A stretch of 64,000 nucleotides of DNA from an uncultured virus (IMG/VR IMGVR_UViG_3300020156_000368) (IMGVR_UViG_3300020156_000368), one strand, 5' to 3'; positions 25,044-42,829 are shown, numbered from the stretch's first letter. Notes: generated by a model not told the origin, from the letters alone. A program made the numbers and translations.

Positions 25044-26463
25044 TATCTGATAACTTTTTGATACTCCAGCCACTCGCCATTGTTTGTGCGGGTGCTTTTT
25101 TTAATACTGAATATAATGGAAAGTATTTCGGATTGGAGCGAGCCATACTTTTAATTTCATCAAGAATTTGGCTTCTTATTAATGGTTCCGTAATCATTCC
25201 AAAGAAAGCTACAACTTCATCTTGAGAATATGAGTCAGGCATTAAAAGTTTTTTAAGCAGCGCATTCGCAATGTTCTCAATTCCAATCGTTTGAGAAATT
25301 TCTTTACGTTGAGAATATCCAGCAGATAAATTATTGCTAATATATATCAATTGATTTAAATCAAATCTGTTAAATTCGTGCTTCGCTAATTTCCAAGGAC
25401 ATGTGCGAGCTAAATCTGCGCAAGTCGCGATATAGGTATTAAACATTCTAAATGAATTTCTTACAATGAGAGAAATCATATCCTCAAAATTATCCGAGGG
25501 ATTTGCAGTCTGATCGTAAGCTTGTAAAATTTGATTTACAACTGGAACTACTTCATCAACGTTTCCCCAGTCATACAGCAGTAGATCATGGAGATTTTTA
25601 GGAATGTAAAATACAATATCTTTATCTGCATCCTTTCCGCCGCTATAGGTATCGCTATGAAGAGAGCCGCGCCTTCTATACTGTCCAATCGGCAATACAG
25701 GCTGATGCTTATTAACCCAGTTTTGAATTTGATCAATGAAGCCTTCAGGTGCGTTTCCATAAGTTGAAGATGTTTCTGGCGCAGCCCACAGCTTACCATC
25801 CTGGGTCTCTAAAGCGCGAATCCAAACGCGAGATAGAGCACGATCAAGATTATTAACATCCTGTTTGCGCACCAAATATGCAACAAATCCACCTTCTTTA
25901 ATTTCAGGAAATAATTCTTTCCAACACTGCCCTCTTTCTGCTTCCATGCAGCTAGTCCAATTCTTATTTGTACTCATGTGGAAAACATCATGGGGATTTT
26001 GGCTGAAAACAATTACTAAGTCGCCAGCAAAAACAGATGTTCGTTGGGAGTCGTGCATAAATTGTTTATATAGACCCTCTAGCTTTGCTTCACTAAAATC
26101 AGGGTCTCCCGCTGGCTGTGCTAATATTTTTTTCTTTATTTTTTGGAAAGCAGTAGAGATTCTTTCTTCTCGATTATATTGAGTATTTAAACAGTAGCCT
26201 TTTTCATAATCGGTAATTTCATAACCATATTTACTAAATAGTGCAACAATACTTGCGGGGGCTTCTGTTTTCTTTTCGGTACGATTAAATGGAATAACCA
26301 GACGATCTTTGCCGCCAAACCATTGATTAAACGGTTTAGGATTTTGTGCGTACAGTTGTTCTACTTGTTGTCTATATTTAGCATCGTACTCTTCTGGTGA
26401 TAACGCTGCCCAGCTAAAAAGCAAGCCGATCTTTTGATGTAGTCCAATAGATAGTAGGTTCAT
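25000..26463 (-). CDS. Paralog family A protein (PH..MS..W.SC..GG..AYL..RVWIR domain)
   Basis: SQNPHDVFHMS...WTSCM...GGFVAYL...SRVWIR...HSDTY; start moved to ATG 26463 downstream of the class II motif. Confidence 0.8.
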   Translation of the reverse strand: MNLLSIGLHQKIGLLFSWAALSPEEYDAKYRQQVEQLYAQNPKPFNQWFGGKDRLVIPFNRTEKKTEAPASIVALFSKYGYEITDYEKGYCLNTQYNREERISTAFQKIKKKILAQPAGDPDFSEAKLEGLYKQFMHDSQRTSVFAGDLVIVFSQNPHDVFHMSTNKNWTSCMEAERGQCWKELFPEIKEGGFVAYLVRKQDVNNLDRALSRVWIRALETQDGKLWAAPETSSTYGNAPEGFIDQIQNWVNKHQPVLPIGQYRRRGSLHSDTYSGGKDADKDIVFYIPKNLHDLLLYDWGNVDEVVPVVNQILQAYDQTANPSDNFEDMISLIVRNSFRMFNTYIATCADLARTCPWKLAKHEFNRFDLNQLIYISNNLSAGYSQRKEISQTIGIENIANALLKKLLMPDSYSQDEVVAFFGMITEPLIRSQILDEIKSMARSNPKYFPLYSVLKKAPAQTMASGWSIKKLSDTTKLQLRNIFSSQL

Positions 26464-26558
26464 TGTTTGACTCTGATTAGTTTTTGGTTTGATGTGTATA
26501 AATTTATTGCTATTATCATGCAATAAATCCTTGCTACGCATGTATACAAGATATCAAC

Positions 26559-26948
26559 ATGAAAGGTTGGTATAAGAAATTGCCAAACGAGTCAGAAAAT
26601 CCAGAAGACAAAGACAAACAGCAAGATTTTTTTGGAGAACAACCAGATAATGATTCCAGTTTTGCCAAGATGCTAGAAGAAAAGCTTAAAAAGCAAGCTG
26701 AGAAGGCGGAAGAGTTAACTAGCGATTTATCCATTTCGGATTTTGTAGATCAGCTTCTTGAACAAGTGGAATCGGAAACAGGCGCAGATTCGCCAGAAGT
26801 TGAGCAGCTACGTGCTATGATGCCATTTATCGAAAGAGAAGAAGCGAAACAGGCAGCACGTGACAAGAAATTTAACGAAGCATTAGGTCTGCTGAGAGTT
26901 ATTGCAGATAATACCACCGAGATTGCTAAAGCTCTTAAAAATAACTAA
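26559..26948 (+). CDS. Hypothetical acidic helical protein
   Basis: ORF after CAATAA-N14-TGTA. Confidence 0.65.
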   Translation: MKGWYKKLPNESENPEDKDKQQDFFGEQPDNDSSFAKMLEEKLKKQAEKAEELTSDLSISDFVDQLLEQVESETGADSPEVEQLRAMMPFIEREEAKQAARDKKFNEALGLLRVIADNTTEIAKALKNN

Positions 26949-27331
26949 AACTTTTTAAAATGCTGTTTAAATTCGTCAAACTGATCTAGTTCACGCTCTA
27001 GTGCTCTTAAATCATAGAGAAGTCCTTCGTAGCCAGAAGTGGTAGCTTGCTGGTACATGGGGTGATTTTCCATCTTCTCGAATTCGTTGGAAGAAATTTC
27101 TCTTAATTCATCAACGTCATAGTATCGCATGAGATAGCAGAGAGCGTCATTGTGATTTGTAGCTTTTACAAGAATGCATTGCTCATAGTCTTTACTTTGA
27201 GGCTTATCATCTCTAACTATAGCCAAAAAGCACATAGTCTCATCTAGATTCGTCAGACAGTCTGCCTTTTTTACAAGCAAGTCCTGGTATTGACTAAACT
27301 TCTTTTGTATGAATGTATCTTTCCATGACAT
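26945..27331 (-). CDS. Small protein with an MSWKD N-terminal motif
   Basis: MSWKDTFIQKKFS matches the starts at 45142 and 61613. Confidence 0.7.
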   Translation of the reverse strand: MSWKDTFIQKKFSQYQDLLVKKADCLTNLDETMCFLAIVRDDKPQSKDYEQCILVKATNHNDALCYLMRYYDVDELREISSNEFEKMENHPMYQQATTSGYEGLLYDLRALERELDQFDEFKQHFKKF

Positions 27332-27465
27332 AGTGCTATATTTATACATCTTTAGCTTTCGTTATCCCTGTATGTAATTGATAAATACGCATTTATTGCA
27401 TGTATTTATGAGAATAATCTGTTATGTAGTTAGTATTCAAAGAAAGCATTGCAAAAGGTTTGCAG

Positions 27466-28197
27466 ATGAACAAATTGAAAAAATTACTCGCTAGTGCGAC
27501 TGCTGATGTTATTGAAGAAGCAGAAGGTTTAGCGGATAAGATTAAAGATGCCTTAAAAAAGGCTCAGGCACCTGCGGAGTCAGGTGATAAAAAGAAATAT
27601 CCAGAAGCAAAGCTAATTGATCTTGGATTTAAGTTCCCTCTCGATATGGACATCCCAGTATATTGGCAACCTCTACCTAAGGGTGTATTTGGTTATTATA
27701 TCCCTGAAAAGTACACTCAAAGAGGCGTTGCGGGTCCAGCTATTTTAATCTGCAAAAGCCACTACAAGAAGTTAAAAGAGAATAAATGTGATGCGTCATC
27801 TTTGACCACCATTTTTCACGAGTTAGGACACCATTGGCAAGATACTCAGTATGACGTAATGGGAACAATGAATCTCAATGAGAAAGATTTAGTTAAGCGT
27901 TACATTAATTATACTTCCAAAGAGCGAGTAATTAACCAGCATGCCAAGATGATTGTTCAGCAATTCTTCAGTGATAGATGTTGGGCAAAAGACGTTATCG
28001 CTAAGCTAGATAAGGCAATCAAGAGAAAGCACTTCGAATACAGGTGCAAGGATAAAGTTATCGCAGTTCACAAGACCAACCTTGGATTTCTTGGTAAAGA
28101 GATTGACGTTAACGATGTAAAAAGTGCCGTTGCAGCATCATTTGCGGAAGATTTTGCAAATAAAGAGATGGGCACCGACGACGAAGATTTGGGTTAA
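27466..28197 (+). CDS. HExxH zinc metallopeptidase-like protein
   Basis: FGYY...TTIFHELGHHWQ...E. Confidence 0.65.
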   Translation: MNKLKKLLASATADVIEEAEGLADKIKDALKKAQAPAESGDKKKYPEAKLIDLGFKFPLDMDIPVYWQPLPKGVFGYYIPEKYTQRGVAGPAILICKSHYKKLKENKCDASSLTTIFHELGHHWQDTQYDVMGTMNLNEKDLVKRYINYTSKERVINQHAKMIVQQFFSDRCWAKDVIAKLDKAIKRKHFEYRCKDKVIAVHKTNLGFLGKEIDVNDVKSAVAASFAEDFANKEMGTDDEDLG

Positions 28198-28332
28198 TTA
28201 ATAAGGTAAGTTGTTTATTTTCAGCGATATTTAAAATTTATAACTTATCACAAGAATTGGCACAATATTGGCTTAGGAACGTTAACATAACTAAACTGAT
28301 CACACGATCAGAAAAAGGAAAGGTTAACCACC

Positions 28333-28965
28333 ATGAGCATTCAAGACAATCAGGGTCGTGGGACTCAGAGAAGTGAATCATCTGAGGCTAGCAATCGAAA
28401 TAGTTCACGACTGCTTCAAGAGTTTGATTCTATGCCATTAGGTGCACAGGATTCACTCTTGAAAGAGATGGTTCGTCGCCATGCAGTAAACATGCAGCGC
28501 CAGTCCACAAACTCTATCGTTGAAGTATTCCAAAAGAGTCTTCAAGACACTCTAGGAATAGAGGCAGAGGAAGAGATTGTGTACGGCATGCCTAAGCCTG
28601 CAAGTCATGGAAAGAGACGCGGAAGACCACGTGGCTCAACAAATAAACAAAATTCACAGGGTCGGCAACAAACACGTGCTCGTAAGCATCCAATTCGTAC
28701 ACGCCCAGGCGTTTTTGAAGGCGGAACTACATGGCAGGACGTAATTGAAGGCATCGTACAGCGCCATCCAGAAGGTCTTCATGTGGATGAAATTACAAGT
28801 GAAGTGAAACAAAGCGCAAACTTACCGTCAGGTTCACGTGATGTAAAGGCGGTAATTCGCAACAATTTATCAAAGATGAACAAAGCTCGTCGCGTGAGGA
28901 AGCTTGGTCGCGGACGCTATGCTCCTGTAGGCGCTGGCTCTGCCTCTAACGGCGGAAACCAATAA
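28333..28965 (+). CDS. Putative DNA-binding protein (AT-hook plus winged-helix-like C-terminus)
   Basis: KRRGRPRG; GLHVDEI...IRNNLS...GRGRY. Confidence 0.65.
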   Translation: MSIQDNQGRGTQRSESSEASNRNSSRLLQEFDSMPLGAQDSLLKEMVRRHAVNMQRQSTNSIVEVFQKSLQDTLGIEAEEEIVYGMPKPASHGKRRGRPRGSTNKQNSQGRQQTRARKHPIRTRPGVFEGGTTWQDVIEGIVQRHPEGLHVDEITSEVKQSANLPSGSRDVKAVIRNNLSKMNKARRVRKLGRGRYAPVGAGSASNGGNQ

Positions 28966-28987
28966 ACGAACTTTGTTTATCGGAGAG

Positions 28988-29021
28988 AGGGGCACTACTT
29001 TCGGGTAGCTGCCCCTTTTTT
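28988..29021 (+). terminator. Intrinsic terminator
   Basis: AGGGGCA-CTAC...GTAG-C-TGCCCCT plus T run. Confidence 0.8.
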
Positions 29022-29056
29022 ATGAATAATAACTCCTTTAGATTGTACACAAGATA

Positions 29057-29896
29057 ATGTTCACACTCTTTAAAAATAAGCCAAAAAATCGTCTGGTAGA
29101 AAAGCTTTCAATCAATCGGCAATCCGTATGCATTTACGAGCCTAGTTGCTCATACAGCAAATGGGAAGAGTCTCCCTATGTGGACATTTGCGGAGAGCGG
29201 CTTGATATTGATTCGATAGTTGATCTGATCCTGCTTACAGTTCGTTGTTCGAAGGAAAATAAGCCAATAACAATTACTTCTAGTCTGCTGGCTATTCATT
29301 TGGTTCAACTGGGGTTTTGGGATGGATCGCATCCAAGCTATCGCATGGGAAAGAATTTTCCAATTGTCAGTGACTTTATTATGCTTTACGTTCAGAAGCT
29401 GATTGATCTTGGAGTATGGGATAGAATGTTTTCTGAGCGCATTGGTCCGTATCGATTCCATCACACTGACCCTTCTTCCCAGCGCCTTAAATCCAGCGTT
29501 GCTGGAGCGATTATGGAAAATGAAATGATACATGGGCAGCGTAAGCCACATCAGCCTAAAACAAGTATTAGGAAAGGTTACGTAAACATATCTGCCGAAC
29601 GCGCCCAGGAATACCTAGATTCCTATATTAGACGCCACTTGTCTCGCAATCCACGCTTAGCGATGAAGTTGCGCAAGTATTCATTACGAAATAAATTCAT
29701 AAAGCTTACAAACTCAGAAGAGATAAATATCGCAGAAGTAGCTTACTCTTACGCTCGACACCTAAGGGAAAATTACTTCATACCAAATAAGAATCTAACA
29801 GCAATAGCTTTGGCTGAGATATTGCATTACGTTGATCCTGAGCGAAATCTCGATGAATTGATTGATATGGTTATGAGTCAAGTCCACGACGAATAA
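29057..29896 (+). CDS. Hypothetical protein
   Basis: 279-aa ORF with a class I promoter. Confidence 0.7.
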   Translation: MFTLFKNKPKNRLVEKLSINRQSVCIYEPSCSYSKWEESPYVDICGERLDIDSIVDLILLTVRCSKENKPITITSSLLAIHLVQLGFWDGSHPSYRMGKNFPIVSDFIMLYVQKLIDLGVWDRMFSERIGPYRFHHTDPSSQRLKSSVAGAIMENEMIHGQRKPHQPKTSIRKGYVNISAERAQEYLDSYIRRHLSRNPRLAMKLRKYSLRNKFIKLTNSEEINIAEVAYSYARHLRENYFIPNKNLTAIALAEILHYVDPERNLDELIDMVMSQVHDE

Positions 29897-29933
29897 GACC
29901 GCCTAATTATTGTATATAAATTGGAGAAACACA

Positions 29934-30233
29934 ATGACAAAAAAATCCCAGTCAATTAATGTTCAGGACAAAGAGCTTGCTGCAAAAAAAGCAAAGCACA
30001 TAGAGTCTCTATATAAAAATGTTGGCGGCATTCACGCTGTTGATGTAAGTGATCCTGACAAGAAAGACAAAACCAAACCTATTGCTATAACTGTGAAATT
30101 TAAGCAAAAGCCTGACTTTGACTATGGTGCAATCTTCGCAAGTATTGAAGAGGAAATTTTTCCGTTTGAGCTTATTGCACTTGAGAAAGATAAAAATAAG
30201 GTCTACGATAATTACGGCTATGGGATGCTTTAA
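29934..30233 (+). CDS. Hypothetical protein
   Basis: GGAGA RBS before ATG 29934; class I promoter. Confidence 0.65.
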   Translation: MTKKSQSINVQDKELAAKKAKHIESLYKNVGGIHAVDVSDPDKKDKTKPIAITVKFKQKPDFDYGAIFASIEEEIFPFELIALEKDKNKVYDNYGYGML

Positions 30234-31388
30234 TTACCAGCGTTTAGAGTCTCTAGCAATTTTTTCATAAACTCTTAGAGAGCATTGATTATAGCTTTTA
30301 AGTGCCCTGCTACCTTCCATCAGCCATGCATCTTTTTCTTCGCATGTGGCATTTAAAAACTGATCCATTTTGGCTTGTATATCTTCCAAAGAATCAGGCT
30401 GAGCTTGCCAGCTTTTTGGGGTCCATGCAACAGCGGGACTTGTAACTATCAGTACACCTTGACTTAGGAAATCGCAAGTTACGATATTAAAAGATTCTGT
30501 ATATGAAACCTGCATTCCAATATCCATTCTTTTGCATAGTTCAAGAAAATCCTTATGATTTAGCCATGGATGTTGAATCAGTCTGTATTTTTCAGGATCA
30601 ACAGCATTAAAAATGTCTTCCAGATTCTTAATTACAACATCACCACCCATCTCTTTTCTTCCGCTTAAGACATGCAATTCTAACTCTAATCCGCGATCAT
30701 GAGCGTAATTGATTGCAGCCATTACTTGAGAGATAACATTTTTTAATGGGCGAATCGCGCAAAAAATACCAACTCTAACTACAGTACCAATGAACATTTC
30801 AGAAGCCTGTCCATCTTGATGAGGCATGACGTTAGGAAGATATAGTACGTCAACGCCAAAAGCTTTAGAGAATGAAGAGGCAGTTTCTTCGTTGTTAGCA
30901 GCAGCACGAATATTAGCATATCGCTTGCTAAGATCAATAACTTCGGCAAGTCTGGCAAAGCCATTTTTTTCTTGAGCGAGAAAAGTAGGCTTTGAGTGGC
31001 AACATACAATAAACTGGCAAGACGGATAACGTTTCGCCAACTGCTCCAGCTTTAGAGCGCGTACCCAATAAGCTTTGATGATAACGTGAGTAGGACGCTC
31101 TTTGAAAATTACTCTATCAATCTGATTGTCGTCTGTAACTCCAACGCTTTCGGCTTTAAATCCAGCTTCTTGAAGCGCCTGAACAGTGAGGTCTGAAGAA
31201 ACATTAAGCCCCACATATCCCTGTTCCGTGCAATGGTTTACACGAATTTTGTAAACATGCAGAAAGTACGAATCGCCAGGATCATAAGGCTTTGGCTCAC
31301 AAACGGCAACTTTTGGGTCGTTGCAGCCGCAAAGATCATTTAGTAGTTCAGACAGATAGTGAAATATTTTTTTGAAGAAGTTTTTCAT
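30234..31388 (-). CDS. GT-B glycosyltransferase (GT4-like)
   Basis: YLPN, AIRPLKN, SYTESFNIVTCD..SQG..IVTS (Ex7E/D motif). Confidence 0.8.
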   Translation of the reverse strand: MKNFFKKIFHYLSELLNDLCGCNDPKVAVCEPKPYDPGDSYFLHVYKIRVNHCTEQGYVGLNVSSDLTVQALQEAGFKAESVGVTDDNQIDRVIFKERPTHVIIKAYWVRALKLEQLAKRYPSCQFIVCCHSKPTFLAQEKNGFARLAEVIDLSKRYANIRAAANNEETASSFSKAFGVDVLYLPNVMPHQDGQASEMFIGTVVRVGIFCAIRPLKNVISQVMAAINYAHDRGLELELHVLSGRKEMGGDVVIKNLEDIFNAVDPEKYRLIQHPWLNHKDFLELCKRMDIGMQVSYTESFNIVTCDFLSQGVLIVTSPAVAWTPKSWQAQPDSLEDIQAKMDQFLNATCEEKDAWLMEGSRALKSYNQCSLRVYEKIARDSKRW

Positions 31389-31456
31389 GTAAAGCCCCTT
31401 AGAGAGTTATCACTCTACCATTCAGGACTTTTGAAGAATAACCTTCCCCATAAAAA

Positions 31457-31489
31457 AACAAAACCCCCTCAAATTGAGGGGGTTTTGTT
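31457..31489. terminator. Terminator hairpin (T run on the minus strand)
   Basis: AACAAAACCCCCTC-AAATT-GAGGGGGTTTTGTT. Confidence 0.85.
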
Positions 31490-31496
31490 CTACTTC

Positions 31497-32375
31497 TTAC
31501 AAGTTGAAGATTGTCTCGAAGTGAGAAATGTCGATGTCGTTTTCTTTTATGTAGCGTTTGACAGTCTTGTAGTTATTTTGACCCTCTAGCCCCAAATGAC
31601 GAAGAATGTCTTTAATTGAGACAGAGCGTTTCACGGCTTCCACAAATTCATCGTGGGTCCATGATGTTTTTCTAAAGTGAGAGGTGTCGATTCCCAAGTC
31701 ATCAAGAAGCCGCTTAGCATGATCAATGCTCTCTCGTCCTGGCGTGAATCCGCACTTGCGCATAAACTCATACCAATTAAGGCTGGCTTGAGCGATGTTG
31801 TCTACTACGGCTCGTGAAAATTGCTGAGCGTCCATGCGATGAGGCACCCTATTTATATTAAAATGAGAAATGTCAATTCCCCAGCGTTCAATGTACTTCT
31901 TAATTCGAAGCCCATTGGTGATAGAGTAGCCAAGAAGCTGTGCTACTTCAGTGTAGGTGCGAGAAGCCTTGACTGCCTCTTCCATTTGTTCACGGGTAAA
32001 CGATAAGGAACGTTCATTGGGTGGCTTTTTCATTCTTGCCTGTTCAGCTTCAGCGGGATCAACTTTTTTGAAGTCTTTTTTCGTGATGTTGTATTGATTC
32101 ATTAGTCGCTTTAGTTTCGGATAGCTGACTTTCAGAACTTCTTGCGCTTGACTAAGCGTTCTGACCTGACTCACTACATTAAGTAGCTCTTCGCGACTAA
32201 TATCGTTACTGGTTGTGGCGATTGATCTTAGATCAATGTCCATGTCTTTGGCGTGACGCTGAAGAGTGTAATCAGATACACCAAGGGTGCGTGCAGCTTC
32301 GTGAAGCGAACGTGAACTTGAAACTACTTGCTGTAGCTGTTCTTTTGTGAATGATGGTGGTGCTGAGTTTAGCAT
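31497..32375 (-). CDS. Repeat HTH-like protein (about 5 repeats), no nuclease domain
   Basis: Repeats of T.E....AV..S.S..E....LG...GIDISHF. Confidence 0.75.
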   Translation of the reverse strand: MLNSAPPSFTKEQLQQVVSSSRSLHEAARTLGVSDYTLQRHAKDMDIDLRSIATTSNDISREELLNVVSQVRTLSQAQEVLKVSYPKLKRLMNQYNITKKDFKKVDPAEAEQARMKKPPNERSLSFTREQMEEAVKASRTYTEVAQLLGYSITNGLRIKKYIERWGIDISHFNINRVPHRMDAQQFSRAVVDNIAQASLNWYEFMRKCGFTPGRESIDHAKRLLDDLGIDTSHFRKTSWTHDEFVEAVKRSVSIKDILRHLGLEGQNNYKTVKRYIKENDIDISHFETIFNL

Positions 32376-32569
32376 AATGCATTACCTCTTTATTAATATA
32401 GGCATGAGTACAACTCAGTCTCAGCGATATTCATGCCTACTCACACGTGCCACAGTTCCACCTTTTACTAGTACTACCAGTCGAGACTTGAACTTATTCA
32501 CGAAAAATTATTTTTGAACAAAAATTTGTTTTGCGTGTAAGAGAAAGTAAACATTTCAGGTGAGGTATT

Positions 32570-33022
32570 GTGTTAAAAGCACTAACAGGTAGTATATCGT
32601 TTCGAGGACGTGATAATTTCTCAATTGAAAACTTTCTTGATGGGGTTTATTCCTTCGATCAGTCCACGACAAAGAAAATTCTTGAGTTTCCTAGATATGA
32701 ATATGAGGACAACACGCAAACACAGCCAGAAGTAATGGGTTATCATCCTGCTCCAGCTTATCCTCAGCCAGTTGCTGCTGATCCATTTGTCCGCCGCCCT
32801 GCTGTTACGGCTGTATCAGCATCCAGAGGCAAAGCAACAATGGCTTTTCAGGAAAACATTGTTTTGCATGAAACAGAGAAAAAGAACACCATTTTAGAAT
32901 TTCAAAACCAATTCTATCTAATAGAAGAAGAAGAAGTGATTAACTTGCTTCTTGCATATAATCTAGATTGTGAATTACGAAATATGTATGCAGTTTCCCA
33001 TTACGATCACAAGATTAAGTAA
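32570..33022 (+). CDS. Hypothetical protein
   Basis: GAGGT RBS, GTG start. Confidence 0.65.
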   Translation: MLKALTGSISFRGRDNFSIENFLDGVYSFDQSTTKKILEFPRYEYEDNTQTQPEVMGYHPAPAYPQPVAADPFVRRPAVTAVSASRGKATMAFQENIVLHETEKKNTILEFQNQFYLIEEEEVINLLLAYNLDCELRNMYAVSHYDHKIK

Positions 33023-33039
33023 ATCTTAGAGGGACAATA

Positions 33040-33261
33040 ATGGCTAAGGCTCCAGATTACGCAGAACATAAGCGTGACTACATCACTAAAGCCTATCTTG
33101 GCAAATTCGGTATTCATACGATTGGTATAGTTAATAATGCTATTCACATTGGATATACTGCCGTAGATCAAATTAATTATAATAGCATTCTAAAGGAAAT
33201 TGAATTGGATATCTCCCCCTTAAAATTAGTTGTTCATGAGGATAGTAATGATACTATATAA
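33040..33261 (+). CDS. Hypothetical protein
   Basis: GAGGG RBS. Confidence 0.6.
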   Translation: MAKAPDYAEHKRDYITKAYLGKFGIHTIGIVNNAIHIGYTAVDQINYNSILKEIELDISPLKLVVHEDSNDTI

Positions 33262-33574
33262 CAATCGTTATTACGAAGTTGAAGCTGTTGTCGAAGAATT
33301 GCCAGATGGCACAGAAGAAGTCGTACTGGATTTAACTCCAGCAGAAAATTCTTATTACAATGTTAGTTCTCATGAATTGGCATTTGAAGATATTGATTTG
33401 GCAATTAAATTTATCGAAGATTCAATTGTTGTCCCTATTGTAACAACTGCTGAGATAGGTGCTTCAGAATTGCAAAATGTAGCTTCGACTGAAAAAGAAA
33501 GATTACAAATCTTCCGCGAAATTTGCGACGAATATGTAAGTCCATTTCGTGGATATGATTATTACTGGGATTAA
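33248..33574 (+). CDS. Hypothetical acidic protein
   Basis: GAGGA RBS before ATG 33248. Confidence 0.6.
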   Translation: MILYNNRYYEVEAVVEELPDGTEEVVLDLTPAENSYYNVSSHELAFEDIDLAIKFIEDSIVVPIVTTAEIGASELQNVASTEKERLQIFREICDEYVSPFRGYDYYWD

Positions 33575-33576
33575 CA

Positions 33577-34026
33577 ATGAACGTGGCAACAGAATATGAA
33601 AAGATGCAGTTGGTTAAATTTAGAATAGCTGCGTCTATGACTGCTGGCGAAGACACTACATTGTTTAGTGATCTATACCAGAAGCACAAAAGCACCCATC
33701 CGCTTGCGCTTCATGGTGATGCAGTTGCATATTCATTATGGAGACGATGGGGTGGACGTATTTGTATTGGCGAAATTACACTGGACAACAGAAGAATTAC
33801 CCATGCGTGGAACGAGCTTCCAACTGGGTTAATAGTTGATCTGGTTAGTGATTTCTTTGGCGGCGATGGCTATGCTCCCTTTATAGAGGCGAAACAGCAC
33901 ATAAGATACAAAAGACCCCCAAAGCCTCTTGTTCGGTTCTATGACAGATTTCTAACAAATCTTTTTGAGTTAGAAGTTGAAAAAATGATGGAAGTCTTAA
34001 ATGAACGCTACAAGATTAATGAATAA
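33577..34026 (+). CDS. Hypothetical protein
   Basis: HAWNE...IVDL motif, transglutaminase-like but with no catalytic Cys evident. Confidence 0.6.
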   Translation: MNVATEYEKMQLVKFRIAASMTAGEDTTLFSDLYQKHKSTHPLALHGDAVAYSLWRRWGGRICIGEITLDNRRITHAWNELPTGLIVDLVSDFFGGDGYAPFIEAKQHIRYKRPPKPLVRFYDRFLTNLFELEVEKMMEVLNERYKINE

Positions 34027-34079
34027 AAAAATACCTTGATGGTAACAATAGTATTATAGAGAAAGAATCCTAATAAAAC

Positions 34080-35672
34080 ATGTTGTTTGTTGATGAATTG
34101 ACCGAAATTATTGATAGAGCGATCCATGATAGTGGATACTTTAACGATAGTGCCGATCTTATTCAATGCCAAAATGATACAGCATTTGGCGAATACAAAA
34201 CCAACGTGGCAATTAGGATTGCCAGCAAAGAGCAACTAAATCCTGTTTCGCTTGCGGTACAAATAGCTCAAAACATTGAACTGTTTGAAATAGGTTCGGC
34301 TACTGTTCTTGATGGATTGATTTATATCAAGCTAAATCCAGGGTATATTGAGAGAAAGCTGGCGCTGGCATGTCATACTCCCAAACCCAACAAAAGGCAA
34401 CGTATCATCGTTGATTATTCTGGTCCAAACACTGCATATCCGATGCGTGCAGAGTCGTTGCGTTCATCATGTGTTGGCGATGTTATCGCTAATATCCTAG
34501 AACATCAAGGGCATGAAGTAAAAAGGCAAAACCATCTAAAAGATTTCAGCATTCAACTTGGAATGCTGATGCAGCAATTAAATTTCTCTACTGACTTTGA
34601 TGCTAAAGAGTTAGAAAAAGAATACACCATTGCTGTTGAACGCTTTAGAAAAGATAAAGAATTTCAAAAAGAAGCGCATAAACGCTTGCTTTATCTTCAA
34701 AACGGCGGAAAGCGTGAACTTCATCTTTGGTCTGCTATTATGGATGTTTATTTGCCGCAGTTTAACAATCTATACAAGCGGCTAGGCATTAGGCTTAATC
34801 AAAAAGATGAGAAGAGTCAAAGTCAGTATGCACCCTATTGCGGCATGATCGTAACGGAATTGATTACCAAACAGATTGCCGTTGGGAGCTACGGGGCAGT
34901 GGTTTGTCTTACGAAAGACAAAACCCCCATTGTCATTAGAAATGAAGATGGAACGTACACTCCTGCAACCTTTGATCTTGCTGCGATGTTTTATCGTAGT
35001 AAGAACTTAGGCGCTGATAGAATTATTTATGTAAGAGATAAAGAGCAGGTCAAATTCTACAATCAATTATTTCAGATTGCAACGAGCGCAGGATGGTTTT
35101 CAGGCACTAAACCTTCCATTGTTCCAGTGGGCATCATGCTTGGGAAAACTCAGATTAAATTATCAGAATTTGTAGAAGAAGCAATATCATCAGGCGCTCT
35201 TTATTCCAAAAAACTACCTGCTCATGTAGGCATTGGAGCTATTAAATATTCTGCTCTGGCTCATGAATATGGAGATTTTGTTTTCAATTGGGATAAAGCG
35301 CTTTCCAACCAAAGCAACTCTTCACTTTATATTCAAAGTGTTTATGCTAGTATTTGTCACTTATTAAAAGAAAATCTCAGTAGCGACAAGCCGACAAAGG
35401 CAGGTCCAATGAATTTGGAAAAGGTTGCCGAAATGCGACTTGCTTTAAAGTTATTGAGATTCCCTGAAGCAGTTTCAAAAACAGCAAGTGAATTAAATAC
35501 CCAGCACCTTTGTACTTACTTATATGAAGTTGCTCAGGCTTATAATAACATGAGATATCGTTATGAAATTTTAGGGCATGCAGGACGTTTAAAACTTGCA
35601 GCACATACGCTTGATGTACTAGCAGAAGGAACTTATATTTTGGGAATTACCACACCAGAGGCAATGGTATGA
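34080..35672 (+). CDS. argS: Arginyl-tRNA synthetase-like protein with HIGH motif lost
   Basis: FGEYKTNVA N-domain, VDYSGPN..LRS..GD..ANIL, DLAA..YR, VGIGAIKY, FNWD, Y.Q..YA.I, LCTYLYEVA, LGI..PE.M. Confidence 0.88.
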   Translation: MLFVDELTEIIDRAIHDSGYFNDSADLIQCQNDTAFGEYKTNVAIRIASKEQLNPVSLAVQIAQNIELFEIGSATVLDGLIYIKLNPGYIERKLALACHTPKPNKRQRIIVDYSGPNTAYPMRAESLRSSCVGDVIANILEHQGHEVKRQNHLKDFSIQLGMLMQQLNFSTDFDAKELEKEYTIAVERFRKDKEFQKEAHKRLLYLQNGGKRELHLWSAIMDVYLPQFNNLYKRLGIRLNQKDEKSQSQYAPYCGMIVTELITKQIAVGSYGAVVCLTKDKTPIVIRNEDGTYTPATFDLAAMFYRSKNLGADRIIYVRDKEQVKFYNQLFQIATSAGWFSGTKPSIVPVGIMLGKTQIKLSEFVEEAISSGALYSKKLPAHVGIGAIKYSALAHEYGDFVFNWDKALSNQSNSSLYIQSVYASICHLLKENLSSDKPTKAGPMNLEKVAEMRLALKLLRFPEAVSKTASELNTQHLCTYLYEVAQAYNNMRYRYEILGHAGRLKLAAHTLDVLAEGTYILGITTPEAMV

Positions 35673-36232
35673 CAACAGCCTTAGAACCACGTACAATCGA
35701 TTATCTAAAAGCCTTACGCAGTACACTTGGTTATGGCTATGTGTTTGACGAAGAGACATCTTTGATTGTTTATACGGCAGCAGGTTTTTTCTCGGCTGAA
35801 GAGAATAAGCTTCTCTTGGCATTCAGAATATCGCGTTTTGATGATGAAATGATCTGCACTCCAATAATGGTTGTCGAGCACGACAAAACATATGTCCCAT
35901 ATCAGACAGAATTATTGCCGCAAGCAAATGAGGAAGTAGCTCTTTGGATATTAGTAAACAGGCGCGGGTTTCTATTTGATTACAGGCGACTAGGAACTGC
36001 TGTAAGTGGAATAAATAGAATGGTACTAAACTTCTGTCTTACGGTACGCAAATCTAAAAAACGCAGAGCGGTTGAAAATAAGATTATTGACTTCCTTTGC
36101 TCTCTAAATGTTATTGATTGTGATCAGGCAATGTTGCCGTTTAAGCGTGGCGATGGCGCGACTGTAACCAGCACTCGCACCTATATTGAAGAACTGGCTC
36201 AAGAATTTGAAGACAGTAGAAAAATTTGGTGA
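35669..36232 (+). CDS. Hypothetical protein
   Basis: ATGA overlap with the argS-like gene. Confidence 0.7.
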   Translation: MTTALEPRTIDYLKALRSTLGYGYVFDEETSLIVYTAAGFFSAEENKLLLAFRISRFDDEMICTPIMVVEHDKTYVPYQTELLPQANEEVALWILVNRRGFLFDYRRLGTAVSGINRMVLNFCLTVRKSKKRRAVENKIIDFLCSLNVIDCDQAMLPFKRGDGATVTSTRTYIEELAQEFEDSRKIW

Positions 36233-36268
36233 ATATAGATCGTGCTTACTGGTAATCAACATGAGGGA

Positions 36269-36748
36269 ATGAGTATGGCGCGACTAAAGCAGGCTGCAAA
36301 ATGGGTTAAGAAACAAATTGACACCATTAAAGATGCTAGTTACTACGAATACGACACAAAGAGAAATGACATGAGTAAAAACAAGAAAGAAAAAAAGGAA
36401 GAAGCCAAAAAAGAACGCTGGATTCATGTAGGTGAATACTACAGACATCCGAACGGTGATATATACCATGTCGTGGATGTTCCGTATAATCCAGAAGACA
36501 AAAAGTGCTGGGTTCAATATATGAAACTTGGTTCCAACACTACGCTTATTCGGAATCCTGATTCTTTCTTGGGTAAAGCTTGGATTGATGGAAAGCATGT
36601 TCCAAGATTTGAGCGTGTTATTCCAACGAAATATCAGACACAGACTGATGAAAATGGGATTGAAAGAGAAGTTCCTATAGAGTTTGGTTCAGCAGATGAA
36701 GTAAAGCCTGCTGGTAAACGTATGGTCGATTCGAAAGTGACCGTCTAA
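36269..36748 (+). CDS. DUF1653-like protein
   Basis: GEYYRH..G..YHV...VQY..L...R...F...PRF. Confidence 0.65.
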   Translation: MSMARLKQAAKWVKKQIDTIKDASYYEYDTKRNDMSKNKKEKKEEAKKERWIHVGEYYRHPNGDIYHVVDVPYNPEDKKCWVQYMKLGSNTTLIRNPDSFLGKAWIDGKHVPRFERVIPTKYQTQTDENGIEREVPIEFGSADEVKPAGKRMVDSKVTV

Positions 36749-37170
36749 TGATATATGATCTTGAAGATTTTCCCGCTTTAAATTTCGTCTTTAAGAAGTT
36801 AAAACTCATAGATCAGCGAACAGACTTGCTTTGCCTAGATGAATTACCAATCAGAGGCATTATGGTCGATACTGTCCGCAAGGTAGACTCTGCGGGAAGA
36901 CTGTCAAAAAAAATAGATGGACTTGGTATATATTTTGCCAGAACATCTATTGAGCCTCATGTAGATGGATGCGTATATGGTGAACAGATGTTCTGTTGGA
37001 ACAACCAAAGTGGAGATATTGCTCTAATCGATAAAATCGATTGTACATATATAATGAAAACCAGAGTAAAAAATACTCTTTCATTAGAATCAAAGAAGCA
37101 GTTAAAGGTTGTCTATCAATCTGAAAATCTTAAAAAAGTCTTACTAGAAGCGGTGAACAAATTATCCTAG
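36748..37170 (+). CDS. Hypothetical protein
   Basis: TAATG overlap. Confidence 0.65.
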   Translation: MIYDLEDFPALNFVFKKLKLIDQRTDLLCLDELPIRGIMVDTVRKVDSAGRLSKKIDGLGIYFARTSIEPHVDGCVYGEQMFCWNNQSGDIALIDKIDCTYIMKTRVKNTLSLESKKQLKVVYQSENLKKVLLEAVNKLS

Positions 37171-37260
37171 TGAATATTTAAAACGCTTCTTTGTAGGACA
37201 TATTAGATGTATAATAAAAAACAACGACTCCCCCATGGGAGAACAGAAAGAGGTAGGTAA

Positions 37261-37692
37261 GTGAACCTTCCAAAAATCGGACGGGTCTACCGTAACCAAC
37301 AGACCGATAAGTTGTACAAGATTCTCGAAGTGGGCTATGATCCCAACGTTGCACCAGACGACGAGAATCCAGCAGTAGGTCGTGTAGTAATCTACACACG
37401 CTACGGAAGCAATGGAAAAAAGTTGTTCATTCGTTCCATTGAGGACTTTTTCGCTCGTGTTGAAAAGGGCGGAGATGGAGAAGAGGCTGGAAGAGAAGTT
37501 CAGCGCTTCATTCAGGTTGTTCCTAAGACTTTCCGTAGTGTTGAAACTCAGTACGGCGTACTTAAAGTGCCTGAGTCTTGGCGTATTGCGCGTAAGAATC
37601 GCGCACTTGGCGTAGCAGTAGCATCTGAAGATGTTGGAACTGATGGCGAAAGTATCGAATCTGACACAAGCGAATCAGAGACAGAAGCTTAA
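37261..37692 (+). CDS. DUF1653-like protein (second copy)
   Basis: GRVYR...YKIL...VVIY...FIRSIEDF...QRF. Confidence 0.6.
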   Translation: MNLPKIGRVYRNQQTDKLYKILEVGYDPNVAPDDENPAVGRVVIYTRYGSNGKKLFIRSIEDFFARVEKGGDGEEAGREVQRFIQVVPKTFRSVETQYGVLKVPESWRIARKNRALGVAVASEDVGTDGESIESDTSESETEA

Positions 37693-37722
37693 AAAGAGCG
37701 GCTTTCGAGCCGCTCTTTTTTT
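37691..37722. terminator. Bidirectional terminator between convergent genes
   Basis: AAAAAGAGCGGC-TTTCGA-GCCGCTCTTTTT. Confidence 0.9.
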
Positions 37723-40700
37723 ACATCATCTTCTTAAGCTTCAAATATTCGGCACATGCAAGCCTTGCTATATTTGTGTAGCTAGCCATAGCAAAACCAT
37801 TTTGATCTTGCTGCGTAGCTGCTGGAGCACCCAATCCCTTTTGCGTCATTTCTGCCTGAAAATCAGGCGGACCCAATTCTATAAGAAAGTTAGCTAATTC
37901 TTGGGTTTTTGCATCTTGGAAGGATCGGAGTAGTTTTAGTTTTGGCTCAATGTAGAATAACCACTTTCCATTGCCTACATTTAGCTGCTTAAATATTTGT
38001 TTCAGTGATTCAACCGCAACTTCATCATAGCCCAATTGATTTAATCTTTCTTGGCTAATCATATTTTTTACAGTCATGTATTTATTAAGGTGATCAAGTG
38101 CACGACTTATCGAAATTCGATATTTAGCTGCGTAATTATAGTCATTTTGGAAATTATTTAAATGAATTTCTATATTTTGTCCTATTTTGGGAGCGGCTAG
38201 TGGAGTATCGGATAGTAGAAGAAAGTCACCCAAATCAAGATGTCCGTAAAGCTCTTCATCACCCAAATAGCGATTAAAGAAGCTTTCCTTGGTGTTTTGA
38301 TCTACTGATGTAGTATCAATCATATTCGTCAATTCTTTTAACGCGCCCGAATTCCGATGCATTATTACTCCAGTGTAGTCTGCACCTTCGCCATTTGCAT
38401 ACATATTCATAAATTCAACAAGAGATTGCTGAACTTCTGGAATATAGAATAAATCTCTCATAATCGGGTTGCTTTCAAAAAAGGAAATGAGCATAACAAA
38501 TATCCCAGGATTTTGTTGAGCCATTTGGATAAAATTTGGCTTCAGTGCTTCAACGAAATCGCCGCCAATCTTCCTATAAAGATCAACAAACGTCTGTAGC
38601 ATTTCACTCATAGTGCTTGCTATTCCGCCAGCTTTAAATGACGTAATGCTTTTTTGGAAATTATTACCAATGCCAGCAATTACTTGAGAAGCAAGCCCAT
38701 GAACTCCCTGCTCAACATATTGGGCAAAGTTTGGGTCTTGCTGCATTTTTTCTTTTAATAGTGGATAAACTTTTTTATGATTTAATCCTTCTAGTAGCAA
38801 TGGGCTTGATTGCTGATTTTTATAAAATTCATCAAAATCTTTCATAAAATAAGCAAGCAACTGTTCTTCCATAAAATCCCTTGTTATTAGCATGTTGCTG
38901 TTAGCTCTTTCAATTACATTAAAGCTATAATTTAAAGAGTTGCGCTGGATCAAATCAGGCAAGATTGTCACAAGAAACTTATTTTGCAACGCACTTCGAA
39001 ATTTATTGGCTGATGGACTTGAAGATGCGACAGCAAAAGCATAACTTCCAGTATCTAATAGGCGATTAAAAGATTCCCAATCTCTTGCTTGTTCATTAAT
39101 TATTTGCACAATACGGTTTTCCTGAAGATTCATAATTTCCTGAGGAAGCATATCTTGATATTGTTTATAAGTAATGCCATACATACTAAAGGTTTCTTTC
39201 GCGTCTCCAGGTGGAAGATTTAAAATCACCTCAGAAAGCCTATCTTTGAATATTTGAAGTTGCTCTTCGTTTAGTGCTGGCAATATGACGTTTGGAAGCA
39301 TGCGAGTAGCACCATTGTTATTTATGTATAATAGGAAATTTCGATCATCTGAAGTGAGAATTGTATTAACTAATATTTCAAACGTAGTCTGAACAGACTG
39401 CTTAACATCTTCGTATACATCTAAATTGTAATATTTCTTTAATAATACTTTTGCTTCACTGCGATCTTCTTCATATTTCTGTCTTTCAAATCCAAGATGT
39501 GAGAAGAATCTTACAGCGTGCTTGTGCACGTCTATCTCTGTGAATAGTTGGATATCTTTGCGAATCTTTTCATATGAAGGCGGATGACTTTTAAAAAGAT
39601 TTATTACGTTCTTATTATATATTGGACTCTCATTAAAAGTAAAGCTAATTTCATTGCCTTTAATTTTGTAAGATACCCGATTCGCAAAATTCGCAATATC
39701 TTCTGCGGTAAATCTTGCATTTAATGCTGGATAATGGAATTGAAATTTCCTAAGCGCATTAAATTTCTTATCAATATCATCAGTAGTCGTATGCATTGGC
39801 AAAGCATCTTGTATAAAATATCTTTTAAATTTAGAAACTTCTTTATCTAGCACTTCGATATTTTGTGCAAAGTAAGCCTTAGCTTGAGGAGTAAAAAACT
39901 GATCTAAATAATTGGTCACATAATCATTAAAATTTTCGGTAAGTGCAGAAAAATCATCAACAAGTATATTATGAGTAGAGCCTAGAGAATCACTGTAATG
40001 TCCGCCACTTTTATTATAGGTGCTTTGAGGGATTTCAGGTTGTTTTTCAGCCAGATAACTCTTTATAGTCGTCAATACATCATCTTTTAGAAATTGAAGA
40101 GCCTTAATACCGTATAATCTATCCTCAGGGATAAGAGTGTAGTGAGTAGGGTCGGCGGGATGCGTAAATAATCTAATCCATACTCTGCCAAGTGGTTTGC
40201 TTAATGTTTCGGTATCATCTTTAGTAGTTAAATAAGCAGCACATCCGCCTTGCTCAACTTCATCAAAGAGGTCTTCGTGGTGCATTCCTACGCCCAGCGT
40301 CATACAAGAGTTTTGATCGCACTCCATGGTGCCTCTTAGCGGATTGCCTTCGTAATATTTGCTCCAATAACGGTCATAGCTCATTTTGGCAATCTGATGA
40401 GGGTCTTGAGTTAGAACAATTACAAGATCATTAATATCAATCCCAAAAGCTTCCAAGTTTTTATATTCTTTGCCATAGCTTCCTTTTAGGTTAGCGACGG
40501 AATCGAACATAGATTGATACATTCCTTCGCGTTCCTTAATCATCGTAGCAATTTCTTGGATTTTGTTTAGCTTATCATCTTTGGAAATATTTTTATCTTG
40601 TTCAGTTTGACTGCGTTCTTGTTTTAATCTCTTGATTTCTGAATCATTTAAAATAGCCTTTTTTAGCGCAGAAGACCATGGAATAACTCTTCCGTATTGA

Positions 40701-41014
40701 TCCTGTACGGTCATTGCTTTAGGGTCGATGTTGGAGAAGCCCAAACCACTTAAGGTTGTGACAATTTCGCTTTGAGTTTTTGTCTGAAGAGGCAAAACGA
40801 TATTAGCTTTTATTTGCTGAACGTTGTGGTATAGATTTCTATCAAGATCAGTTTTTGATTCTGGGAACCACGGATCAAGCATGTTTTTGCGCCTCATATA
40901 CAAGTTGTTAACTCGTGTGCGCCATTGTTCATCATATTCCTGATCAGAAGCAAAAGTGTGCAAAAGACTCAAGTGCGTGTTGTTTGTAATTTTCTTGAGA
41001 TTTAAAAAAGGCAT
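37721..41014 (-). CDS. Paralog family A protein, 1097 aa
   Basis: TQDPHQIAKMS...W...NSCMT..G...GGCAAYL...GRVWIR...YSDS; long helical C-terminus. Confidence 0.85.
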   Translation of the reverse strand: MPFLNLKKITNNTHLSLLHTFASDQEYDEQWRTRVNNLYMRRKNMLDPWFPESKTDLDRNLYHNVQQIKANIVLPLQTKTQSEIVTTLSGLGFSNIDPKAMTVQDQYGRVIPWSSALKKAILNDSEIKRLKQERSQTEQDKNISKDDKLNKIQEIATMIKEREGMYQSMFDSVANLKGSYGKEYKNLEAFGIDINDLVIVLTQDPHQIAKMSYDRYWSKYYEGNPLRGTMECDQNSCMTLGVGMHHEDLFDEVEQGGCAAYLTTKDDTETLSKPLGRVWIRLFTHPADPTHYTLIPEDRLYGIKALQFLKDDVLTTIKSYLAEKQPEIPQSTYNKSGGHYSDSLGSTHNILVDDFSALTENFNDYVTNYLDQFFTPQAKAYFAQNIEVLDKEVSKFKRYFIQDALPMHTTTDDIDKKFNALRKFQFHYPALNARFTAEDIANFANRVSYKIKGNEISFTFNESPIYNKNVINLFKSHPPSYEKIRKDIQLFTEIDVHKHAVRFFSHLGFERQKYEEDRSEAKVLLKKYYNLDVYEDVKQSVQTTFEILVNTILTSDDRNFLLYINNNGATRMLPNVILPALNEEQLQIFKDRLSEVILNLPPGDAKETFSMYGITYKQYQDMLPQEIMNLQENRIVQIINEQARDWESFNRLLDTGSYAFAVASSSPSANKFRSALQNKFLVTILPDLIQRNSLNYSFNVIERANSNMLITRDFMEEQLLAYFMKDFDEFYKNQQSSPLLLEGLNHKKVYPLLKEKMQQDPNFAQYVEQGVHGLASQVIAGIGNNFQKSITSFKAGGIASTMSEMLQTFVDLYRKIGGDFVEALKPNFIQMAQQNPGIFVMLISFFESNPIMRDLFYIPEVQQSLVEFMNMYANGEGADYTGVIMHRNSGALKELTNMIDTTSVDQNTKESFFNRYLGDEELYGHLDLGDFLLLSDTPLAAPKIGQNIEIHLNNFQNDYNYAAKYRISISRALDHLNKYMTVKNMISQERLNQLGYDEVAVESLKQIFKQLNVGNGKWLFYIEPKLKLLRSFQDAKTQELANFLIELGPPDFQAEMTQKGLGAPAATQQDQNGFAMASYTNIARLACAEYLKLKKMM

Positions 41015-41083: not shown

Positions 41084-42829
41084 TTATTGAGCTACTGCAA
41101 CTGCTCCAAGACGCTTCTTCTTTGTCTTTTGCTTAACACCCAGCATAACTCGCTCAAATTTAATTGCGTACACATCCCACAGTCTGTTTAATATACTATC
41201 AAACTGTTCATCATGAACACCTGGAATACAGGATTTGACCGCTGTTTGACCGATTTCTCGAACTTGCTGCATAAGCATTGGTGACATAATGATATTATCG
41301 CTTATATCACCATTCCAAAGAACAGAACCATTGCTAGCCAACTGTTTTATATAATAGCTAGCGTCATACCCATATGGGCGATTGGATTTTGAGCCGCCAA
41401 TACCTGAAGAGACCTGTTGCAACAATAGGCTTATACCATAGGAATAATCAAAATGGAATTCCAGCTTCGAATAGACGTTTTTTAATTTCTCAATATACTT
41501 AAAGAAGTTCTCTACCTGGTTAGCTCCCATATAACCAACGTTAGGCTGCTGAAAATACCACTCTGCCCACTGGTAAATATTGGCTTTGAACGCTTCTGCA
41601 TACTCTGCATTGTCCTGAATGCCGTTTGAAATTGCAGGACGAAGAAAATCACGTGGAAGAATGCCACCAGTATTTTGATAATACCCGCCATAATTACCGA
41701 ACAAGTTATATCCGCTTGCGCGTAGGATAGCACAAGCATTCTTTGAGATATAGTCGTAATCATCATGGCGAATAAATTTCATTATTTCGCCATAACTATC
41801 ACTATATGCCGCGCCACATCTTTTGTAATTGCCGCTCACATATTCTGGCTGATGAGCTTCAATGTATTCCTTGATCTTGTCTGCAACTTCAGCTTTTAGA
41901 TTGGTCACGATTTGTGCGCAATAAAAGCCATTCTCCACAACAAGTTTGGGGATGTCGTTTTCTTCATGTCTAAATAATCTTATCCAAACACGTGCGAGTG
42001 GACGATGAAGCTCTACATCATCGCCTGTTGTAAGATATGCGACACATCCACCGTTGCGAAGTTCAGAAAATACGTTGCGATATATGCCGCGATTATCGCC
42101 AAGCGTTAAACAGGATTTTTGAGGTGATTCCAAAGCGTCTTTAAGTGGATTGTCACAATTTGATCCCCAGTATCGATCAAAACTCATGCATGCCATCTGA
42201 TGAGGGTCTTGAGTTAGAACAATAATTAGATCATCTAAGTCGCGATCAGTATCACTGCGTCGTTTAGCAGACGCTGCGTTTGCAAAGCGGGAGAAATCAT
42301 CCAGTACTGTTTTAAATTTAGCGTCAATTGCTTTAATATTTTCACGGACTTTGTTTATTAAGACAGTACGTTCATCCAAAGAGAGAGATTTATCAATCTG
42401 AATCTTTTCAATCTCTTCTTTTAGAGGCTTCTGTTCAGTATGTTTAATTTTAGTGATGATGGTTGCGAATTTATAGGTGTTTGTATCGCCAGCTTTGCGA
42501 AGTATACAATTTCTATGGTCGGCAATCCAACCGTTTTCTACTGAGTAGCCATGCTTTGTAAAAAATCCGACAACTTTATCCTTGTGCTTACTCTTAAATG
42601 GGATAATTACATCTGCCCGCATTCTCATGGGCTTTTTGCCATAAAGTCGTGGCTCATATTTTTCAACTTCTTGAGGAAACCAAGGATCGAGAAAATATTC
42701 TCTTTTACCGTAAGCTTTAAGTACCTTTGGTACATATCTGGCTAAATAACGCTTTTGCGAATTAGTCATTTGATGATATGTAATTCCAGCAGGAACGGGT
42801 TTAACTTCAGAAGAAGTTTTAGTTGTCAT
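41084..42829 (-). CDS. Paralog family A protein, 581 aa
   Basis: TQDPHQMACMS...KSCLT..G...GGCVAYL...ARVWIR...YSDSY; shares LDPWFP with its neighbour. Confidence 0.85.
   Translation of the reverse strand: MTTKTSSEVKPVPAGITYHQMTNSQKRYLARYVPKVLKAYGKREYFLDPWFPQEVEKYEPRLYGKKPMRMRADVIIPFKSKHKDKVVGFFTKHGYSVENGWIADHRNCILRKAGDTNTYKFATIITKIKHTEQKPLKEEIEKIQIDKSLSLDERTVLINKVRENIKAIDAKFKTVLDDFSRFANAASAKRRSDTDRDLDDLIIVLTQDPHQMACMSFDRYWGSNCDNPLKDALESPQKSCLTLGDNRGIYRNVFSELRNGGCVAYLTTGDDVELHRPLARVWIRLFRHEENDIPKLVVENGFYCAQIVTNLKAEVADKIKEYIEAHQPEYVSGNYKRCGAAYSDSYGEIMKFIRHDDYDYISKNACAILRASGYNLFGNYGGYYQNTGGILPRDFLRPAISNGIQDNAEYAEAFKANIYQWAEWYFQQPNVGYMGANQVENFFKYIEKLKNVYSKLEFHFDYSYGISLLLQQVSSGIGGSKSNRPYGYDASYYIKQLASNGSVLWNGDISDNIIMSPMLMQQVREIGQTAVKSCIPGVHDEQFDSILNRLWDVYAIKFERVMLGVKQKTKKKRLGAVAVAQ

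Follow-up and report, generated by a model that had tools for sequence, protein, structure and literature searches.

Proteins that derive from aminoacyl-tRNA synthetases and no longer act as enzymes are already known. HisZ, a paralogue of HisRS, has no adenylation activity and mediates inhibition by histidine, according to PMC9437257, which also counts SLIMP and halobacterial LeuRS2 as synthetase-derived non-enzymes. In these two proteins and in DALRD3 (PMC7237682), aminoacylation is described as wholly or largely lost and binding of the cognate tRNA as kept. Huge phages carry up to 15 synthetases, which have been read as charging phage tRNAs (PMC7162821). A literature search, which covered titles and the starts of abstracts of the matches listed and had most subscription journals outside its coverage, returned no case of a dead or decoy synthetase in a phage.

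Here we describe a gene for an arginyl-tRNA synthetase (ArgRS)-like protein, called pseudo-ArgRS below, on DNA of an uncultured virus (IMG/VR IMGVR_UViG_3300020156_000368). The window, by which we mean the whole stretch of 64,000 nucleotides that was analysed, is part of a 71.6-kb contig on which most ORFs have no family. Pseudo-ArgRS resembles bacterial ArgRS (TIGR00456; E. coli 4OBY, 5B63, and 5YYM; Neisseria 6AO8) in its three domains and fold and is about 30% identical to it, but HIGH and the upstream lysine are missing, the KMSKS-equivalent loop is deleted, GDWG and GES are broken, and its length falls short by about 40 residues. Large viral contigs also carry canonical ArgRS genes, represented here by 22 ORFs from 26 IMG/VR loci of large phages and giant viruses; some of these have long branches, but they keep 83-100% of the invariant columns, compared with 65% (31 of 48) in pseudo-ArgRS; this viral set was fetched with canonical motifs and says nothing about how frequent dead copies are.

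The comparison with described non-enzymes is likewise one of partial similarity. Pseudo-ArgRS shares with HisZ a synthetase fold without the means of adenylation and, as we propose below, regulatory binding of an amino acid; HisZ, as described, is a widespread class II protein with the partner HisG, whereas pseudo-ArgRS is of class I and a singleton in our searches. Unlike DALRD3, SLIMP, and LeuRS2 as they have been described, it is viral and has lost most tRNA-identity residues; with DALRD3- and SLIMP-like proteins it shares the loss of catalytic motifs but not the retention of cognate tRNA recognition residues. NrtL (NF045898), an ArgS-related anticodon-binding protein that is also ArgRS-derived, matched weakly over the DALR domain. 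Membership was rejected at 42.5 bits against a cut-off of 340; the NrtL model is 327 amino acids long, and pseudo-ArgRS retains the whole catalytic domain. Although synthetase-derived non-enzymes are not new, the viral setting and a parallel case in a tyrosyl-tRNA synthetase (TyrRS) on the same contig add interest to the ArgRS case.

Gene frame and catalytic site

The original prediction of an intact ArgRS frame was borne out. The ORF runs from ATG to TGA with no internal stops (Table 1), and three ArgRS Pfam domains scored above their cut-offs (Arg_tRNA_synt_N, 31.9 bits; tRNA-synt_1d, 165.6 bits; DALR_1, 65.5 bits). Alignment with E. coli ArgRS covered the full length of the protein (E 3e-61), which narrowly passed the NCBIfam argS cut-off (264.4 against 261.65). 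The architecture and fold of Add1, Rossmann catalytic, and DALR domains are all present, and the sequence shows descent from a bacterial-type ArgRS.

Table 1. Features of pseudo-ArgRS and of the surrounding window.
Feature	Position	Strand	Remarks
Pseudo-ArgRS, 530 aa	34080..35672	+	Complete ArgRS fold; no ATP site or tRNA-identity readout left; arginine pocket mostly kept
TGAATAA, recurrent promoter-like heptamer	34020..34026	+	60 nt ahead of the ATG; shares bases with the final codon and stop of the preceding ORF
N-terminal Add1 domain, ~residues 6-85	34095..34334	+	F36 kept; equivalents of Q40, F82, and N84 are K40, L80, and Y82
Former HIGH region, residues 111-129	34410..34466	+	D112 and N117 kept; K, H, G, H replaced by Y120, R123, E125, S126
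Arginine side-chain/main-chain recognition segment, residues 290-323	34947..35048	+	D299, R306, and Q323 kept; Y313 replaced by P295
Shortened KMSKS-equivalent loop, residues 351-361	35130..35162	+	~10 residues deleted; KFKTR or MSTR type absent
DALR anticodon-binding domain, ~residues 377-530	35208..35669	+	Helical core kept; one residue added after the terminal Met
187-aa ORF	35669..36232	+	No known family; ATG overlaps the pseudo-ArgRS stop (ATGA)
PTH2-type peptidyl-tRNA hydrolase	1727-2194	+	
NadM-Nudix and nicotinamide phosphoribosyltransferase	3577-6013	+	NAD salvage pair
tRNA-Gly(TCC)	17262-17340	+	One such gene
AspRS, 462 aa	17807-19195	+	No bacterial insertion domain; class II motifs intact-looking
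TyrRS-like second altered synthetase, 393 aa	23862-25043	+	I168 and K172 replace tyrosine-pocket Tyr and Gln; KMHRS for KMSKS
Four paralogues of a jumbo-phage family without Pfam name	25000-26541, 37721-41014, 41084-42829, 54497-56737	- (all)	Conserved domain in common
RNA ligase, then HD + AAA_33 kinase protein	48116-49929	+	
Separate DFP and flavoprotein genes	50398-51051, 51936-52508	-	Like CoaBC halves; M23 peptidase gene between
Two tandem PcfJ-like proteins	56804-60159	+	

The sequence of the gene appears reliable. A contig from the single run that carries the gene (X1; soil metagenome, depth 15.5) had zero differing letters across 22500-38500, was identical over the gene, and showed no variants in it. 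No RNA run was listed among the carriers of the gene. There is no obvious assembly error behind the changes in pseudo-ArgRS, with the reservation that X1 may be the source sample and hence not independent. The X1 contig has a 1-base gap at 31460, outside pseudo-ArgRS and between the ORFs at 30234-31388 and 31497-32375. The codon adaptation of pseudo-ArgRS (0.732, compared with a range of 0.638-0.779 in 38 long genes of the contig), its GC3 (0.32), and its codon use all match the other genes.

The predicted changes in the catalytic motifs are real. The HIGH region reads PNTAYPMRAES (residues 116-126), the equivalent of GDWGTQ reads KDFSIQ (154-159), and the KMSKS-equivalent region reads GIMLGKTQIKLSE (351-363). 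In an alignment of 273 rows (251 database proteins and 22 ORFs from the 26 IMG/VR viral loci), Y120, R123, E125, S126, K154, S157, Q247, P295, F326, and I347 of pseudo-ArgRS each occurred in 0 of the 270-273 homologues aligned at that position. In canonical ArgRS, these positions hold the K, H, G, and H of the HIGH region, both GDWG glycines, the GES glutamate, Y313 (E. coli numbering), and another two histidines. Judged from this alignment, the motif changes lie far outside normal homologue variation.

None of the HIGH/ATP-site set, in which the upstream lysine and a fifth residue are included for their usual functions, is kept (0/5, in E. coli numbering through pairwise alignment). Of the 273 homologues, 267 have 20-21 residues in the KMSKS-equivalent stretch, where pseudo-ArgRS has 11. 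Because the HIGH/ATP residues are gone and the KFKTR loop is deleted, pseudo-ArgRS very probably cannot aminoacylate, which supports the predicted catalytic death; judged by HIGH with its upstream lysine, by the loop, and by the A20 pocket, the protein does not belong to the working ArgRS family. The losses are not, however, concentrated in catalytic residues as had been claimed. The N-terminal domain keeps 3/6 of its conserved columns, the catalytic domain 38/60, and the anticodon domain 19/27 (Fisher p = 0.82); with the latter and the N-terminal domain pooled, the comparison is 38/60 with 22/33 (p = 0.82). Across conservation classes from 0.6 upward, retention is evenly spread as well (0.53-0.77).

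Arginine pocket and tRNA-reading residues

Five of the seven arginine-pocket residues (E. coli D118, N123, H132, Y313, D317, R324, and Q341) are kept, both essential aspartates included: D112, N117, D299, R306, and Q323 of pseudo-ArgRS correspond to D118, N123, D317, R324, and Q341, respectively. Y313 is lost, as is H132, a residue that binds arginine by its main chain. The roles of this segment in arginine recognition are taken from PMC3956977, which reports for E. coli ArgRS that arginine binds without tRNA and that, in isothermal titration calorimetry (ITC), D118A and D317A abolish arginine binding and Y313A costs about two-fold. Retention in the pocket did not differ significantly from that of other conserved polar columns (5/7 compared with 16/28, p = 0.41), and buried pocket residues may persist for stability alone. 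The original prediction had missed this largely kept pocket.

Both tRNA-binding domains are present as folds, as had been predicted, but several tRNA-reading residues have changed. One of the five residues of the A20 pocket (E. coli F36, Q40, A78, F82, and N84; PMC8975779) is kept, with the A78 position adjoining an alignment gap; PMC9976931 describes A20 as the nucleotide on which arginine identity chiefly depends in E. coli. With the Omega-loop of E. coli ArgRS taken from PMC3956977, the equivalents of G454, Y462, and R466 are all serine, and 1/4 of the Omega-loop/anticodon-helix set is kept. Among homologues these three positions are conserved in 267, 246, and 271 of 273, respectively. In the yeast ArgRS-tRNA complex, the equivalents of Y462 and R466 contact the tRNA. 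Conserved basic columns are still basic in 12 of 27 cases, compared with a homologue median of 22 (lowest 11-14). F36, K50, K389, Y390, Y417, and M529 are kept, and the net charge is +8 in the catalytic domain, at about the 95th percentile of homologues, and -5 in the N-terminal domain. No tRNA-Arg gene was found in the window.

Selection, relatives, and genomic context

Since our searches found no sister genes of the ArgRS, we simulated neutral decay in place of estimating dN/dS. Intact ArgRS genes of virus records were mutated at random until their loss of invariant residues equalled that of pseudo-ArgRS; the runs thus start from genes other than the true ancestor and follow a simple mutation model. 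Four genes with 300 runs each gave means of 5.7-11.5 stops (P(no stop) ≤ 0.01), and six long-branch genes with 500 runs each gave 6.6-10.3 (P(no stop) ≤ 0.004). Of 133 hydrophobic-class columns, 94% are still hydrophobic in pseudo-ArgRS, a level reached by 0 of 2400 and 0 of 3000 simulated runs; stops were forbidden in half of the 2400-run set, and the core eroded below the observed level in all 1200 of these. Because neutral runs give more stops and a more eroded core, the open frame and hydrophobic core look selected under this model, beyond what neutral decay would leave. The original prediction had named neutral decay as its refutation; simulated decay predicts 6-11 stops and a weaker core, and the gene does not resemble a neutrally decaying pseudogene. 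We consider a selected non-catalytic role of some kind likely. In-frame deletions were discarded as evidence of selection, as the 14 deletion runs fall within the homologue range (95th percentile 15).

The AlphaFold2 model built with 149 homologues reached pLDDT 95.7 and matched the ArgRS structures of E. coli, Neisseria, and human at TM 0.87-0.91; it leans on the canonical homologues and is no independent proof of folding, and without an alignment the pLDDT was 36. Atlas's own model had pTM 0.87 and TM 0.93 to ArgRS clusters.

The gene had been assigned its own promoter at 34021. No sigma-70 consensus precedes pseudo-ArgRS, and with 18 sites against 16.1 expected in 32300-37800 a sigma-70 promoter was rejected; what stands is the recurrent TGAATAA at 34020, with a putative promoter function. 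The window has 29 copies of this heptamer, of which 14, against an expectation of 1.5, precede one of 66 hand-listed starts by at most 100 nt; it is probably a phage-specific promoter element. Copies are found 19-60 nt upstream of gene starts, for example at 7229, 11622, 14100, 29023, 34020, 42931, and 48080. The ORF at 35669 is probably co-transcribed and translationally coupled with pseudo-ArgRS, of which it is a putative partner; Atlas assigned it no family (best score 0.81). When the ORFs nearby were examined for a tRNA-modifying partner enzyme, they gave no match to any enzyme family in Pfam or PHROG, and no tRNA nucleotidyltransferase was found beside the gene.

Searches for a sister ArgRS with the same losses returned none. 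A word-index search gave 103 matches among 8000 scored candidates, the best at 34% identity, and a 50%-representative library gave 6516, with identities of 29-38% among the 149 listed besides the query. There were 0 hits among 901 candidates in proteins shorter than 291 amino acids, no sister in viral or metagenome contigs, and two distant matches, neither a sister, in genome contigs. Eight records of annotated phages matched at 24-31% identity, none with the same losses. ArgRS was found in 0/7 distantly related phage records (control G008 positive; only 2/7 at least 90% complete) and in 0/4 AspRS-linked records. Across these searches, pseudo-ArgRS is a singleton. In a FastTree tree of 107 rows its branch (1.64) is long, like those of L013 and L014, and groups with no viral ArgRS. 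The Phycisphaerae-like top matches were not accepted as donor because no clade's diagnostic residues are enriched, and the tree gives no donor lineage. In a 1.02-Mb IMG/VR record (L030:6064-7385), the ArgRS match is spread over ORFs of 74 and 310 aa, which may represent a gene that has been split or disrupted.

Gene content suggests that the window belongs to a jumbo-phage genome, probably that of a giant soil phage. Matches to the four-copy protein family were found in 28 phage records (all 15 of those listed measure 253-642 kb) and in 8 IMG/VR loci at 25-32% identity. Pfam found a phage-tail repeat on the contig and recognised no capsid or terminase in the 74 ORFs scanned. The RNA ligase and HD/AAA_33 kinase look like an RNA end-healing and sealing pair, and PTH2 and RNA ligases are described as jumbo-phage tRNA-repair genes in PMC7824862.

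Two other synthetases are encoded on the contig. The altered TyrRS, absent from the original prediction, has replaced the Tyr and Gln that in the TyrRS pocket bind the substrate's amino group (PMC1934993). It keeps HLGH, R191, and D252, the latter two corresponding, by counting in the alignment, to T. thermophilus R198 (an A73 contact) and D259 (a G34 contact). Its sister P0105, on a 1.7-kb contig, is 49% identical, has canonical motifs, and retains the lost tyrosine-pocket residues; no further sister locus was closer than 34% identity. Among columns at least 90% conserved in 118 TyrRS, the window's copy alone has lost 23 and P0105 alone 8 (p = 0.011), compared with 28 and 20, respectively, in more variable columns (p = 0.31), although the difference in excess between conserved and variable columns was not significant (p = 0.23). 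The AspRS looks intact and thus serves as an internal control: not every synthetase on the contig has eroded. The His in its RRDHG motif presumably indicates the non-discriminating type. Its best match in the viral collection, 55% identical, is on L047, whose neighbours look chromosomal.

Candidate roles of pseudo-ArgRS

The likelihoods we attach to all readings are judgements and were not computed. Because the arginine pocket is the one old ligand site that is largely kept, our best guess, a tentative one, is that pseudo-ArgRS may be a non-catalytic arginine-binding module that acts through a partner in the manner of HisZ. Its expression would start from the promoter-like TGAATAA and include the coupled downstream ORF, and the protein would bind free arginine, or an arginine-bearing molecule, without turnover. 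The bound state would then be passed on to the partner protein, as HisZ does with histidine, for nutrient sensing or for mopping up the ligand during infection.

Several other roles have to be set against an arginine-binding module. The ArgRS shape could be a protein-level mimic or scaffold that has neither a small molecule nor tRNA as its ligand and instead binds a protein, be it a phage partner or a host factor, toxin, or defence sensor that ordinarily interacts with ArgRS. We regard this as somewhat doubtful. In its favour, the substrate-specific residue sets are eroded or at background level while the fold appears selected, the next ORF is probably translationally coupled, and the contig is rich in jumbo-phage host-conflict genes (PTH2, RNA ligase, HD/kinase, and NAD salvage). 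HipA-type kinases modify the KMSKS-like loop in other synthetases, but this loop is deleted here, hence pseudo-ArgRS would be no decoy for them. It is rather doubtful that the gene is a functionless remnant under weak indirect selection, in which an open frame avoids polar effects on coupled genes and foldability avoids aggregation. Such a remnant fits a singleton with losses spread evenly over domains and conservation classes, the ATGA junction with the next ORF, and the absence of ArgRS from the seven distantly related phage records, few of them near complete. It does not explain why the hydrophobic core is better preserved than under neutral change with stops forbidden, or why 530 of about 570 residues persist when a large in-frame deletion would remove the cost, and the TyrRS has lost catalytic residues in parallel relative to an intact sister.

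The remaining readings keep tRNA or catalysis at the centre. A relaxed-specificity binder, which would clamp tRNA-shaped RNA without arginine identity for tRNA repair or shielding, is a little more doubtful still. The folds of both tRNA-binding domains, the six kept residues listed above, the positive catalytic domain, the tRNA-repair genes on the contig, and the report that yeast ArgRS binds tRNA without A20 readout (PMC8975779) are consistent with it, but with 15 of the 27 conserved basic columns no longer basic, pseudo-ArgRS ranks with the lowest of the homologues, and the N-terminal domain is negatively charged. The original prediction had favoured a specific tRNA-Arg binder that shields the tRNA from anticodon nucleases, sequesters it, or acts as a decoy. 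This draws on the presence of both tRNA-binding domains, on tRNA-cleaving defences and phage countermeasures that are real (PMC12475279), and on DALRD3, an ArgRS-derived protein reported to bind tRNA-Arg without catalysis (PMC7237682). We now find it improbable because the A20 pocket (Q40, F82, and N84 replaced) and the Omega-loop/anticodon-helix residues have changed, with A20 being the main determinant in E. coli (PMC9976931), three serines in place of G454, Y462, and R466, and no tRNA-Arg gene in the window. A still-active synthetase with a rewired active site is the least credible, at most a slim chance. The argS cut-off is narrowly passed, the arginine pocket is mostly kept, and many ArgRS are reported to lack a canonical KMSK (PMC3956977), but both HIGH histidines, the glycine, the upstream lysine, and the loop are gone together, the change from glycine to glutamate should block the adenine seat, and the replacing residues are common to no homologue.

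The tRNA-shield idea would fit the TyrRS copy better than the ArgRS copy because retron Ec78 has been reported to degrade tRNA-Tyr (PMC12475279). More speculatively, this phage lineage may have turned captured class I synthetases into non-catalytic binders, in which the TyrRS copy would shield or hold tRNA-Tyr and the ArgRS copy would sense or soak up arginine or an arginine-containing immune signal.

Both altered genes pass the NCBIfam cut-offs for argS and tyrS, respectively, so annotation pipelines will count both as working enzymes. If two of the three synthetases on this contig are selected pseudo-enzymes, synthetase counts overstate the translational autonomy of phages, and a possible class of phage binding proteins would be hidden by such counts. 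The TyrRS copy, with an intact sister at 49% identity, makes the pseudo-enzyme idea directly testable. Should the captured synthetases indeed form a set of binders, annotated phage synthetases would include counter-defence or regulatory pseudo-enzymes that are now filed as working enzymes.
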